The notes beneath the pieces are model-generated. The model saw only the letters and a list, made by a program, of their open reading frames with translations, had not been told where the DNA came from and searched no databases. Positions 6,744-43,590 of a stretch of DNA of 46,639 nucleotides are shown here, one piece after another. This DNA comes from a virus (taxonomy: Duplodnaviria; Heunggongvirae; Uroviricota; Caudoviricetes), in the IMG/VR virus record IMGVR_UViG_2529293141_000012; one strand, 5' to 3'. Each line of letters starts with the position of its first letter. The stretch's first letter is position 1. The position numbers were made by a program, and so were the translations under genes.

Positions 6744-7034
6744 TTAGTGATTCAGGCCGTTACCGCGTCCGTCGAGAAAAACTTCCACGAGCAAATCACG
6801 GGTATAAGTGCGCTCGATGCCGCGATGCAGATAAAGCCGTCCGCGTAAATTAGCTGATGCAGTCCAGGTACCATCTTTGTGTTTGACCAGCATTCCTGGC
6901 ATGACCGCACCTCGATTAACGGTCTGCGTTCCGTAATGTTGATGAACCATAAAAACTCCTGCCCGTAAGCTGGGCTGCTGAACATATAAAGACTTCTGCG
7001 CGTATTCAGGCGGTGGATGGCCGCCGGTTGTCAT
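6744..7034 (-). CDS. Hypothetical 96-aa protein, the only ORF between gam and the putative PL (N/kil/cIII position)
   Basis: ORF in the PL-proximal position; no arginine-rich motif like lambda N; weak SD; could be a leader-region artefact. Confidence 0.3.
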   Translation of the reverse strand: MTTGGHPPPEYAQKSLYVQQPSLRAGVFMVHQHYGTQTVNRGAVMPGMLVKHKDGTWTASANLRGRLYLHRGIERTYTRDLLVEVFLDGRGNGLNH

Positions 7035-7229
7035 AACTAAGCCGCCTCGTTGAAGCGACTAAGGTATGAAATGTTGAGTTAATTTCAGCTGGTCACACCG
7101 ACGTTCACGCGTCCGTTTCACCCCTCGCACTCCCCGAAGCCTGCTGAAATTCAAACTGCGGATCTAAGCGGTCATCGCAACGGTGAATCAGGTGGTTGCC
7201 GTATCGTTGTGTTGTTGCGATATGGTGAT

Positions 7230-7340
7230 AATAGCTATTGCTATTGGTGATATCAATACTTATTGCTATTAGTTGATGTGTTTTGATATTAAATGTTTGA
7301 TAGCAAAAAGAATTAATTTTGTGACTTGCATCGCATAGCG
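7230..7340 (-). promoter_or_regulatory. Putative OL/PL operator-promoter region
   Basis: Repeated ATTGCTATT motifs (also found in the cI-cro intergenic region), AT-rich, immediately downstream of the rex-position terminator. Confidence 0.3.
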
Positions 7341-7394
7341 ATAACTGAAGTGAGGTGTGGTGGTTTTTTGGACGGTTTGTGTGATGAGGGGAGG

Positions 7395-7425
7395 CAAAAG
7401 AAAACCCGGCACTGGGGCCGGGTTT
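7395..7425 (-). terminator. Intrinsic terminator ending the repressor-operon transcript
   Basis: Hairpin CCCGGC-ACTGGG-GCCGGG followed on the minus strand by TTTTCTTTTG. Confidence 0.55.
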
Positions 7426-7500: not shown

Positions 7501-7941
7501 CTAAAGAAAAAAGTACATTGATAGCTTATAAAGACCTGTTCCTGCAGCGATGATTGCTGGAACACCAAGCAATACCGCAAGCTTTGCGTCTGAAATCTTT
7601 CTATCGACAGCATCGATGGAGGGTTTTTTGGCTAGTGAATCTTTTATTGAATCGAGTCGCTCCAGAACAGCGATCATGTTTCTGTCGATAGATTTGACAT
7701 CTGTCTTAAGCTCATCAACGTCACGTCGGATATAGGACACATCAGACTCAAGCTTTGCAACTTTCGATTCAAGCACATTATTACTCCCAGAGCCACCGCT
7801 ACCACTTGATTGTAGCATAGGTACATTACCGCCAGACATACCAGCTGATTGAGAAAATGCTGCAGTGTGCAAAGATGATGATCTTGCCGCTTGTTCAAGC
7901 TTTTCAGTTAGGTTTGGAGCTTCGTAATAACCGTGTTTCAT
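7501..7941 (-). CDS. Hypothetical tail-anchored membrane protein with coiled coil (rexB position)
   Basis: 146 aa; Gly/Ser-rich N-terminus, heptad-like segment LESKVAKLESDVSYIRRDVDELKTDVKSIDRNMIAVLERLDSIKDSL, C-terminal TM helix LAVLLGVPAIIAAGTGLYKL; AT-rich; co-oriented downstream of cI. Confidence 0.6.
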   Translation of the reverse strand: MKHGYYEAPNLTEKLEQAARSSSLHTAAFSQSAGMSGGNVPMLQSSGSGGSGSNNVLESKVAKLESDVSYIRRDVDELKTDVKSIDRNMIAVLERLDSIKDSLAKKPSIDAVDRKISDAKLAVLLGVPAIIAAGTGLYKLSMYFFL

Positions 7942-7949
7942 TGTTAATA

Positions 7950-8219
7950 TTATGACTTATTGGTTTTAGCTCTATCATGCTGATCGCGAATAAAGTCAGC
8001 GAGTTTAAGCATTAAATCTTCCGTCATGCGAATTGTTGCAATGTTGTACTTTACGTTTTCAGTGTCATTACTACCATCAGCGCCCCATTCTGTAACATGC
8101 TGAAAGAAAGATATGGAGCCTAAGCGATCGTCATCTTCCCCAAAAGATGAATATCCAAATGCATCAGCATATGCATCTACACAGTTATTTGATTTTTTTA
8201 TAAGTTTTTTATCACTCAT
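7950..8219 (-). CDS. Hypothetical acidic 89-aa protein (rexA position)
   Basis: ORF directly downstream of the repressor gene, 9 nt upstream of the membrane-protein gene; no recognisable family. Confidence 0.5.
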   Translation of the reverse strand: MSDKKLIKKSNNCVDAYADAFGYSSFGEDDDRLGSISFFQHVTEWGADGSNDTENVKYNIATIRMTEDLMLKLADFIRDQHDRAKTNKS

Positions 8220-8298: not shown

Positions 8299-8991
8299 TT
8301 ATCCGTGTTTCCTATACGTCTGCGGCATACTGCCAATAACCTTCCCGAAAATGAACACCCGGTTCATCTCGTCTTTCTCGATCGGGTCCCACGGTGAGTA
8401 GCTCTTGTTATCAGAGATAACCAGTAGCTTATCTTTCATCATTTGCAGGCGCTTTACATGGGCTGTGTCGTCGTACAGAAACGCATAGATACCATCACCG
8501 TCGAAAGATTTAACCGTGATATCAACGAACAGCAGATCACCTGGTTCGATCGTTCCTGACATGCTGTCACCGCGCACGTTAATGATGCGGATATTTTCCG
8601 CCTTCCTGCCATCGAACATGTGACGAGCATCGTCAAACGAGTACTCAACCGAGCGTAGAACTTCCACAAACTCACGGTTGATGACACCCGGTCCGGCACT
8701 GACTTCTATATCAAGAACGTCAATCTTGAAGTATTTTGAATGGCTGACAGCAGGCTTCCCTGATTGTTGACCGTCATTTCTCATCGGGCCTATGCCTGAT
8801 GAGAGCCATTCTGTTCGAACACCCAATGCATTAGCTATTTCAACAATTTTTGTTGAGCCGCGCGCGTTGCCGCTTGTCAGTCTCCAGATTGTGGGTTGAG
8901 CTACGCCAGACGCCTTTGCAAGAGCGCCTTGAGACATTCCAGATTGTTCCATCGCTAGGTTTAAGCGATCAGCAAGAGTTTCTTTTTTCAT
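8299..8991 (-). CDS. cI: CI-like prophage repressor (HTH plus S24 LexA-like peptidase domain)
   Basis: N-terminal HTH (MSQGALAKASGVAQPTIWRL), C-terminal GDSM…K autocleavage motifs; ATG at 8991 has no SD (leaderless, as for lambda PRM); ORF-track frame extends to a TTG at 9027. Confidence 0.85.
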   Translation of the reverse strand: MKKETLADRLNLAMEQSGMSQGALAKASGVAQPTIWRLTSGNARGSTKIVEIANALGVRTEWLSSGIGPMRNDGQQSGKPAVSHSKYFKIDVLDIEVSAGPGVINREFVEVLRSVEYSFDDARHMFDGRKAENIRIINVRGDSMSGTIEPGDLLFVDITVKSFDGDGIYAFLYDDTAHVKRLQMMKDKLLVISDNKSYSPWDPIEKDEMNRVFIFGKVIGSMPQTYRKHG

Positions 8992-8999
8992 AAGTTTTA

Positions 9000-9095
9000 A
9001 TTTATACGCTTGCGTATTGATGGTCAAAACACGTTTTGCTATTGCTTGGGTTAATACGCATTGCTATTATTCATTCATTGCAATACCAATAGGAA
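9000..9095. promoter_or_regulatory. Putative OR operators with divergent PRM/PR-like promoters
   Basis: Intergenic region between divergent repressor and cro; near-palindrome ATACGCTTGCGTAT and repeated TTGCTATT / ATTGCAATA motifs. Confidence 0.45.
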
Positions 9096-9101
9096 TTGAT
9101 A

Positions 9102-9353: not shown

Positions 9354-9899
9354 ATGACTATGCAACCACTTACATACCAACAGACTAGCGGATTTAGCCC
9401 GACTGCGGTGATAAATCGTTCTCAAACAAAACAGGCGCCAGGCCACGAAAAAATCCGTGATGCCGTTCGCGCCTGGTCGGCTGCAGATAATCAGGATGTT
9501 GTTGCCGCACTCATTGTGAATGAGTATCGGGAGCAGGGCGGCGGCACCATCGATTTCCCTGATGATGTCAGCCGTGCACGCCAGAAGCTGTTCCGCTTCC
9601 TCGATAACAAATTCGATTCTGAAAAATACCGAAATAACGTGCGTGAACTGACCCCGGCAATTCTGGCGGTACTACCGCTGGAATATCGCGGCCACCTGGT
9701 TGAGCAGGATAGCTACATGGCTCGGCTGGCTGAAATGGAAAAGGAACTCAGTGAGGCAAAACAGGCTGTCATTCTCAACGCACCACGCCACCAGAAACTG
9801 AAGGAGATGAGTGAAGGCATTGTGTCGATGTTTCGTGTGGACCCGGATTTGGCTGGTCCACTGATGGCGATGGTCACCACCATGCTGGGGGCAATATGA
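9354..9899 (+). CDS. Hypothetical 181-aa protein in the cII position (possibly a CII/CP76-type regulator)
   Basis: Located between cro and O where lambdoid phages carry cII, but about twice the size of lambda CII; family assignment is from memory only. Confidence 0.45.
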   Translation: MTMQPLTYQQTSGFSPTAVINRSQTKQAPGHEKIRDAVRAWSAADNQDVVAALIVNEYREQGGGTIDFPDDVSRARQKLFRFLDNKFDSEKYRNNVRELTPAILAVLPLEYRGHLVEQDSYMARLAEMEKELSEAKQAVILNAPRHQKLKEMSEGIVSMFRVDPDLAGPLMAMVTTMLGAI

Positions 9900-43009: not shown

Positions 43010-43590
43010 TGGCATTCAGAATGAGTGAACAAGCACGGACCATAAAAATTTATAATCTGCTGGCCGGAACTAATGAATTTATTGGTGAAGGTGACGCATA
43101 TATTCCGCCTCATACAGGTCTGCCAGCAAACAGTACCGATATTGCACCACCAGATATTCCGGCAGGCTTCGTGGCTGTTTTCAACAGTGATGAGGCATCG
43201 TGGCATCTCGTTGAAGACCATCGGGGTAAAACGGTTTATGACGTGGCTTCCGGCGACGCGTTATTTATTTCTGAACTCGGTCCGTTACCGGAAAATGTTA
43301 CCTGGTTGTCGCCGGGAGGGGAATATCAGAAGTGGAACGGCACAGCCTGGGTGAAGGATACGGAAGCAGAAAAACTGTTCCGGATCCGGGAGGCAGAAGA
43401 AACAAAAAACAGCCTGATGCAGGTAGCCAGTGAGCATATTGCGCCACTTCAGGATGCTGTAGATCTGGAAATCGCAACGGAGGAAGAAACCTTGTTGCTG
43501 GAAGCCTGGAAAAAGTATCGGGTGTTGCTGAACCGTGTTGATACATTAACTGCACCGGATATTGAATGGCCAGTAGCACCTATAGGGTAA
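43009..43590 (+). CDS. tfa: Tail fibre assembly protein Tfa
   Basis: 193 aa, [44 protein letters not shown]… matches lambda Tfa. Confidence 0.9.

Follow-up and report, generated by a model that had tools for sequence, protein, structure and literature searches.

A repressor-linked prophage gene pair with swappable partners and a putative nested membrane product: a candidate RexAB-like cassette

Exclusion genes linked to a prophage repressor form a small, classic group that includes rexAB, sieA and bstA; how RexAB works remains a matter of debate. In phage lambda, RexB is a channel protein with four transmembrane (TM) helices and RexA is a DNA-binding protein of ~279 amino acids (aa); the pair is credited with excluding T4 rII and further phages through depolarisation of the membrane. 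More broadly, systems of the RexAB type consist of a cytoplasmic partner and a membrane effector encoded beside the repressor (PMC12894663). SieA of phage P22 is a polytopic inner-membrane protein that blocks DNA injection and acts alone (PMC10883804). The interval between the repressor gene and gene N has already been described as a mosaic site for morons, with rexAB and bstA among its occupants (PMC7067206, citing Degnan et al., 2007). Here, we analyse two adjoining genes, A and B, that occupy this kind of position in a tailed-phage genome of 46,639 nucleotides (IMG/VR record IMGVR_UViG_2529293141_000012). This whole stretch of DNA is called the window.

Our tentative reading, to which we give a probability of about 0.4, is that A and B form a lysogen-expressed exclusion or abortive-infection cassette. 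The cassette would combine an interchangeable cytoplasmic sensor with a conserved membrane effector. In favour of this reading, the pair lies inside the immunity region, is co-oriented with cI and is closed by a terminator. The slots that the cassette occupies hold known or candidate defences in other phages (PDC-M11 in Lambda_4C10 and sieA in P22). It also behaves as a moron, being AT-rich and found, elsewhere, antisense within tail operons. Modular exchange of partner, N-terminus and tail is typical of conflict systems.

Approximately 110 related loci were compared. These are not independent, many being near-duplicates. The C-terminal 90 residues of B are 70-90% identical across Escherichia coli, Salmonella, Citrobacter, Klebsiella, Enterobacter, Pantoea, Erwinia and Serratia; the N-termini are wholly different. 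In nearly all loci, a small acidic soluble protein is encoded immediately upstream of the core gene and on the same strand. These partners belong to at least four families with no detectable relationship. Type I, which includes protein A of the window, was found at 37 loci (87-113 aa) and the beta-rich type II at 42 loci in two clusters (136-187 aa). Type III accounts for 14 loci (93-106 aa) and type IV, with four cysteines, for 5 loci (112-132 aa); a singleton at one locus falls beyond these types. Profile-profile comparison of type I with types III and II revealed no relationship (probability 0.1), and a Pfam search with 15 type II partners returned one weak match, to DUF6941.

The type of N-terminus carried by B tracks the type of partner without exception in all loci. 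In addition, at least four distinct coiled-coil/TM tails follow the type I partner with its matching N-terminus: the common core (in the window), a tail with 33% identity (Salmonella phage UPF_BP1 and Klebsiella), a non-homologous 207-aa form (Serratia) and a short XhlA-like form (Raoultella). For the B proteins of the window and UPF_BP1, the N-termini are 78% identical but the C-termini only 33%. The exchange point between the two parts of B is the linker. Because the N-terminus of B always changes together with the partner, we infer that these two constitute one functional unit, for docking, and the coiled-coil/TM part another. The preliminary description of this DNA had presented B as a small membrane effector. 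That picture was incomplete. B consists of a partner-specific N-terminus, a linker and a conserved core with a conserved putative internal start, and A is one of several interchangeable partner types.

In the long form of B, AlphaFold2 predicts helices at residues 9-32, 53-105 and 109-145, the first with low confidence. The Gly/Ser-rich stretch, earlier assigned to the N-terminus, is in fact an internal linker at residues ~33-55; the length of B, its coiled coil and its single C-terminal TM helix were described correctly. Relatives of B differ by an insertion or deletion of one heptad, exactly 7 residues, within the coiled coil. The coiled coil breaks at KKPS, and a conserved juxtamembrane motif (KKPSxDxVDKKISDAKL) precedes the TM helix. 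Across 17 relatives of B, residues K106, P107, S108, I116, A119, K120, L121, L124, L125, G126, P128, T135 and K139 are invariant. The only hydrophobic segment is at ~119-138, and eight residues follow the TM helix. Since B has no signal peptide, and its single TM helix is near the C-terminus, it is predicted to be a tail-anchored inner-membrane protein with its bulk in the cytoplasm.

Both genes are under purifying selection. The ratio of non-synonymous to synonymous substitution rates (dN/dS) is 0.08-0.10 for A, 0.4-0.5 for residues 1-55 of B and 0.13 for residues 56-146. The low ratio for the core, together with the invariant juxtamembrane and TM residues, argues that this part of B is constrained beyond the need of an anchor. 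The exact A and B sequences each occur on at least 1000 contigs, always annotated as hypothetical. Of 5426 complete E. coli genomes, 198 (~3.6%) carry the region over at least 80% of its length with an identity of 99% or higher. The cassette is also found in Salmonella, Citrobacter, Klebsiella, Serratia, Pantoea and Erwinia. We also considered that A and B might be spurious open reading frames (ORFs). This was rejected because of the purifying selection, the open-frame statistics and the wide conservation.

Gene B probably gives rise to two products, because a Shine-Dalgarno (SD) motif and a start codon are conserved at the beginning of the core. These would be the long form, B-L, and a nested core-only form, B-S. 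The first residue of the core is encoded by ATG or GTG in 37 of 37 unique contexts; the window lineage has GTG. The sequence GGAG(G) is found 4-12 nt upstream of this codon in 35 of the 37 contexts, and at exactly 7 nt in 27. At the remaining in-frame positions of these genes, the background frequency of such a motif is 4%. The internal SD and start recur across five partner types and several tail types, and the same design is seen in the non-homologous Serratia and Raoultella tails. Most lineages have the motif in the frame GGA GGN, encoding Gly-Gly, whereas type I genes carry it across Gly-Ser codons (tct ggG AGt) with unchanged spacing to the start. Since the reading frame of the motif differs between lineages, the conserved object is the nucleotide motif and not the amino acids. 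Often, the short form is the only one that gene callers give: the 91-aa version (P0011) on 92 contigs, and versions of 90-93 aa elsewhere. Public annotations disagree about the start of B, giving 146 aa, 105 aa (from Met42) or 91 aa (from GTG56), each on many contigs.

The long form is also real, because the region between the partner's stop codon and the core is open in the B frame in 38 of 38 unique cases (the other frames contain 92 and 189 stops) and B-L starts close to the stop codon of the partner (-29 to +12 nt). In the window, the ATG of B-L has no SD motif and lies 8 nt after the stop codon of A. This suggests that B-L translation is coupled to termination of A.

We next turn to the slots in which the cassette is found. 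In 70 of the 108 loci with a partner call, a cI-type helix-turn-helix (HTH) repressor gene is directly upstream and co-oriented. A Mnt/Arc-type repressor gene, as in P22-like phages, takes this position in 11. The remaining loci are among tail genes (antisense in Pantoea and Citrobacter), are partner-less core-only copies, or are a few distant matches. Pfam assignments for the 62 unique upstream ORFs were HTH_3 (32), Peptidase_S24 (23), Phage_CI_repr (11) and Arc (2). The cassette is not tied to one immunity type, since the upstream repressors differ in kind, with and without S24. The gap between repressor and A is often 10 nt or less, or the genes overlap (2 nt at locus L003, a 4-nt overlap with mnt at L119, and an overlap with mnt in UPF_BP1). 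Hence, in many relatives, A is in the same operon as the repressor.

Locus L107 has a cI gene 98% identical at the DNA level to the HK97 lambda-immunity region; next come genes for a type II partner and a B-type protein, and then N. Sister phages have gp48 or hicAB in this HK97-type slot (hicAB in mEp234 and HK106). Around the window terminator, ~125 bp are 91-95% identical to 14 lambda-like phage records, where they flank other cargos. This flank (window 7300-7425) is partly matched in ~1224 of 5426 E. coli genomes. The interval between terminator and cI contains, in sister phages, the PADLOC candidate defence pair PDC-M11A/B (Lambda_4C10) or an unnamed pair of 148 and 340 aa (PhiR68_2). We read the 125-bp terminator segment as a conserved boundary of a two-gene cargo slot, whose second conserved boundary comprises the cI 3' end with the short intergenic region. 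In P22, orf59a and sieA are annotated between mnt and gene 16, co-oriented with mnt. The mnt-gene 16 interval holds the A-B cassette in UPF_BP1 and in Klebsiella and Serratia prophages; the slot used in the window is the cI one. Together, the L107 arrangement between a lambda/HK97-type cI and N, PDC-M11 in the sister slot and the sieA slot of P22-like phages bear out the earlier proposal that A and B are in the rexAB position.

Core-only copies of B (~90-100 aa), with neither partner nor N-terminal extension, are present in Pantoea and Erwinia chromosomes (L025-L029 and L065). They are at a fixed site beside genes for an AraC-family regulator and an EamA transporter, in some cases with a coiled-coil/TM paralogue in tandem. 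Their arrangement points to a cellular ancestor or to domestication. Separately, a third co-oriented gene follows B in Citrobacter (a BamE-like lipoprotein of 126 aa; L007 6474-6854), Serratia (a secreted 101-aa protein; L017 5957-6262) and Klebsiella (a 75-aa protein; L119 4268-4495).

The features of the window are collected in Table 1. The pair is enclosed by the immunity region of a lambdoid E. coli prophage, which is bounded by operator repeats. The minus strand carries, in this order, exo, bet, gam, kil, the PL-like promoter with operator-like repeats, the terminator, B, A and the cI-type repressor gene. The plus strand continues with OR-like repeats, cro, a gene for a YdaT-domain protein in the cII position, O and P. 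Of eight window matches to the operator-like repeat ATTGCTATTG (one mismatch or fewer), seven cluster at 7231-7271 and 9035-9096. Because they cluster on both sides, we place the A-B pair inside the immunity region. A near-identical copy in E. coli strain 98206 adjoins tRNA-Thr/proA, and RefSeq annotates both genes as hypothetical proteins. The repressor matches PHROG_4, transcriptional repressor (9e-70). Its RefSeq gene is 693 nt; a program-made ORF list puts the start at TTG 9027.

Table 1. Coordinates of the A-B cassette and flanking elements in the window.
Feature	Position	Strand	Details
cI-type repressor gene (HTH + S24 autopeptidase)	8299..8991	-	Pfam HTH_3 1.5e-6, Peptidase_S24 1.5e-18
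Gene A; 89-aa acidic soluble protein, partner type I	7950..8219	-	ORF
Gene B, long form (B-L), 146 aa	7501..7941	-	ORF; partner-specific N-terminus, linker, coiled coil, C-terminal TM anchor
B variable N-terminal segment, residues 1-32	7846..7941	-	Co-varies with partner type; proposed docking site for A
B coiled coil, residues 57-103	7633..7773	-	Unbroken heptad, 14 consecutive a/d positions, all L/V/I/M
B C-terminal TM helix, residues ~121-138	7528..7581	-	Peak Kyte-Doolittle hydropathy 1.8 at residues 119-137
Internal SD motif GGGAG inside Gly/Ser linker	7784..7788	-	7 nt before internal GTG
Proposed nested short product (B-S), ~91 aa, core only	7501..7776	-	GTG 7776-7774, codon 56
Intrinsic terminator ending cI-A-B unit	7425..7402	-	9-pair stem (6 G-C) and T-run
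PL-like promoter	7256..7228	-	10/12 match; overlapped by OL-like operator repeats 7231-7271
OR-like operator repeats between cI and cro	9035..9096	.	4 of 8 window matches to ATTGCTATTG, at most 1 mismatch
Small hairpin overlapping cI stop codon	8283..8299	-	Six pairs, AUCAGC-N5-GCUGAU, then GAGGCUUUUGG (CUUUUGG); from sequence

The preliminary description had reported two AT-rich genes co-oriented with a cI-like repressor. Both ORFs are indeed on the minus strand at the positions it gave, and the two genes have a GC content of 39.9%, against 50.8% for the window. It had also placed an intrinsic terminator at 7395-7425, before a putative OL/PL. Our search recovered this terminator, with its folding energy well below that of shuffled sequences (z = -3.7), and the PL-like promoter beyond it. 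The small hairpin at the cI stop codon is kept, with one G-C to G-U change, in loci that have different cI N-termini. It may be a partial terminator or a processing site ahead of A, attenuating read-through from cI into A. At the 3' end of A, just before B, there is a weak sigma-70-like site (ATGATA-N18-CATAAT; 7978..7949), which recalls lambda PLIT inside rexA. The site is within chance expectation, a scan having found 3 against 4.8 expected. No N-like or Nun-like ORF was found between the PL-like promoter and kil (window 6951-7227), although the related loci L023 and L107 do have N there. The PL leader RNA, checked for a put-like structure in place of N, is not unusually structured (z = -0.5). 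The YdaT-domain protein in the cII position (9354-9899) has 181 aa and is named 'toxin YdaT domain-containing protein' in RefSeq, as in Rac-type prophages. The only Rfam match in the window at the gathering threshold is IS009 (43352-43550, 228 bits), far from A and B.

Protein A has an isoelectric point of 4.98 and no hydrophobic segment, in keeping with its first description as acidic and soluble. An AlphaFold2 model built from a 14-sequence alignment has three antiparallel strands followed by a 22-residue C-terminal helix (mean confidence score, pLDDT, 78). The protein matches phrog_4231 (2e-49), and B matches phrog_3556 (4e-54); both are function-unknown PHROGs. The family of A is tiny. A HMMER profile search of 1.84 billion representative proteins returned its own family alone, in 10 clusters, and the sole hit of a structure search of BFVD was an unnamed viral protein of 93 aa (E = 2e-3). 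Searches with A gave no match in Pfam, NCBIfam, PADLOC or PDB sequence profiles.

For protein B, searches of Pfam, NCBIfam and PADLOC returned sub-threshold, generic coiled-coil matches. Non-significant coiled-coil matches were likewise obtained with PDB profiles (P22-type tail needle, Lpp and GCN4 chimeras). Homology of A or B to RexA or RexB was not found by searches of Pfam, NCBIfam, PADLOC and PDB sequences, and neither a family nor a PHROG link to SieA was detected. The statement that neither product resembles RexA, RexB, SieB or a named family therefore holds in the Pfam, NCBIfam, PADLOC and PDB profile searches. No known toxin or antitoxin family was matched by A or B in Pfam, PADLOC or NCBIfam. 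We found no paper on these proteins or accessions; the screen of Brenes and Laub (2025), which might include the cassette, was outside the literature covered. The RefSeq accessions of A and B are not in the DefensePredictor supplements.

These observations lead us to propose the following mechanism. Protein A, probably as a dimer, would dock on the N-terminal segment of B-L, whose translation would be coupled to termination of A. The internal start would supply core-only B-S, which could co-oligomerise with B-L via the coiled coil. In a resting lysogen, the complex of A with B-L would hold the assembly in a harmless state. On infection, the variable unit of A and N-terminus would recognise a component of the phage, which would release or rearrange the core. 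The core would then damage or depolarise the inner membrane and so stop the infection. B-S would be the unrestrained species of the membrane effector, with A and B-L acting as the specificity and gating unit. This logic is that proposed for RexA/RexB and relatives (PMC12894663), combined with a dual start resembling that of a holin and antiholin; the cassette has no sequence relationship to either. We chose this model because it accounts economically for the lysogenic context, the AT-rich mobile moron, the swapped partners, the constrained core and the putative nested product.

Several points weigh against a defence cassette of this kind. What speaks for an anti-phage role is location, architecture and modular evolution. 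In PADLOC-DB 2.0, B gave chance coiled-coil matches only (E of 0.006 or greater) and A gave none, so that neither has defence-family homology. Among 50,697 records of isolated phages, the pair is encoded only by UPF_BP1. Binding of A to B is deduced from co-inheritance of adjacent DNA, a pattern that simple linkage, with recombination inside the conserved core, would equally produce. The internal start, too, is deduced from sequence. An excess of GGA among the glycine codons of the linker, which the internal SD might leave as a trace, was not significant (34% compared with 28%, p = 0.19). This argument was dropped, and the case for the internal start is built on the positional conservation of SD and start. 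By itself, one TM helix followed by only a few residues is no evidence of pore formation. Finally, the chromosomal core-only copies in Pantoea and Erwinia hint at a cellular, non-defence role for the core.

Those same core-only orphans, by their fixed chromosomal site, favour a cassette with no anti-phage role. It could be an addiction module of toxin-antitoxin type, or could alter membrane or stress physiology by lysogenic conversion, in the manner of tail-anchored ElaB/YqjD-type proteins. With a small acidic protein encoded ahead of a membrane protein and 8 nt between the genes, the layout recalls a toxin-antitoxin pair. In addition, hicAB sits in the same slot in mEp234 and HK106, and the want of a defence-family match fits too. 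We nevertheless consider this unlikely. At least four unrelated partner types on one core are more typical of conflict systems than of housekeeping, the cassette is repeatedly in slots known for exclusion genes, and Pfam gave no match to DUF883/ElaB or any toxin-antitoxin family. Superinfection exclusion at the point of DNA entry is somewhat less probable again. Here, B would tether A to the cytoplasmic face of the inner membrane, or its TM/juxtamembrane part would bind a conserved host membrane protein that serves genome entry, and injection would be blocked without a shutdown of the cell. Entry blockers are classically found among the tail-operon morons of siphophages (HK97 gp15 and cor of phi80 and N15), and the cassette is found among tail genes too. 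In P22-like phages it replaces orf59a-sieA, and SieA is an inner-membrane blocker of injection (PMC10883804). Membrane-located defence at the injection site has a precedent in SNIPE (PMC13190303), and strong conservation of the TM residues is in line with their binding a host partner that is itself conserved. However, all of A and nearly all of B would be cytoplasmic and ill-placed to meet periplasmic ejection proteins. Moreover, A is acidic and has no recognisable enzymatic or DNA-binding feature, and an entry block gives no reason for interchangeable cytoplasmic partners or a nested short product.

The roles of the two proteins could also be reversed, with A as the effector and B sequestering A at the membrane until infection. 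The gp30/gp31 pair of phage Butters is a precedent (PMC12894663). Variable partner families could then be different effectors, and the suggested coupling of B-L translation to A would give matched amounts. Yet the partners are small (87-187 aa) and have no catalytic signature, and the most conserved and constrained part of the system is the B core rather than the partner. A passive tether would need neither an invariant TM/juxtamembrane region nor a nested core-only product, and we judge this arrangement very improbable. Least probable of all, in our estimation, is that the pair serves the lytic cycle of the prophage itself, as an XhlA-like holin accessory or a device for timing lysis. Some relatives are named 'hemolysin XhlA', and one sub-branch reaches 25.2 bits on Pfam XhlA (PF10779). 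A dual start is also a design known from holins, such as S105/S107 of lambda. Conversely, window B scores 11.5 bits (E = 0.34) against a cutoff of 34.7, and only 2 of 69 relatives reach E < 0.01. In the loci examined, holin, endolysin or spanin genes were never neighbours of the cassette; its settings are operons of repressors or of Mnt, or tail-gene regions, where several copies run antisense to the late operon.

A defence candidate in this slot is itself unsurprising. The modular architecture, internal start and wide distribution make the cassette a good experimental target. It would belong to a known kind, the repressor-linked prophage exclusion cassettes; its unusual features are swappable small partners and a putative nested two-product membrane gene. 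A bolder version of the sensor-effector reading, possible but doubtful in our view, is that these cassettes are an undescribed and widespread prophage defence family of the Enterobacterales. Its nested tail-anchored effectors would be combined with swappable partners of at least four unrelated folds that set the phage triggers. Such a family would join RexAB-like sensing to holin/antiholin-like gating, and every partner type would have a cognate docking peptide in the long form. The cassette is tiny and naturally modular, with the same core next to several partners and the same partner next to several cores. If it is a defence, this natural swap series offers a handle on sensor gating, on triggers and on whether the nested short isoform is the active species. 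It would also add a compact and easily overlooked type of system to defence catalogues. If it is not, a conserved tail-anchored protein in prophage-repressor operons represents an unexplained lysogenic-conversion function.

How, then, does the cassette compare with described systems? The RexAB-type systems considered were those of lambda, Sbash, CarolAnn and Pseudomonas putida. As in lambda, two genes lie directly downstream of the prophage repressor gene, are co-oriented with it and end before PL/OL. One product is soluble and cytoplasmic and the other is a membrane protein, and at L107 a relative of the cassette replaces rexAB after a lambda/HK97-type cI. The differences are in the proteins. 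B is predicted to be single-pass and tail-anchored with a long coiled coil, whereas RexB has four TM helices, and A is acidic and much shorter than RexA (89 aa compared with ~279 aa). Furthermore, the A-type partners are interchangeable families and the B gene has a putative nested internal start. With SieA, the cassette shares the mnt-gene 16 slot, the orientation, a lysogenic context and an inner-membrane location, predicted in the case of B. However, there is no homology, and A-B is a two-gene unit with mostly cytoplasmic bulk.

XhlA, from lysis cassettes of the PBSX/SPP1 type, is small like B, and in it, too, a coiled coil precedes a TM helix at the C-terminus. Unlike XhlA, B has no holin or endolysin neighbour, has a partner-specific N-terminus and a dedicated soluble partner, and is in a lysogenic and not a late context. 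Dual-start holins (lambda S107/S105 and phage 21 S71/S68) resemble the predicted arrangement of B in having two in-frame starts and products that share membrane and oligomerisation parts. Conversely, the starts in B are ~55 codons apart rather than 2-3, the extension is a proposed docking segment, and B has no holin homology. The mycobacteriophage Butters genes gp30/gp31 also form a repressor-proximal pair of cytosolic and membrane proteins, and there the membrane protein binds the soluble one (PMC12894663). The sequences are unrelated, and in the A-B cassette the membrane protein is the conserved component. Because tests for homology fail, and the cassette takes the positions of rexAB and sieA, we class it as RexAB-like in its working. 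In the reading that we favour, it would operate in the manner of a RexAB-type module while standing outside that family.

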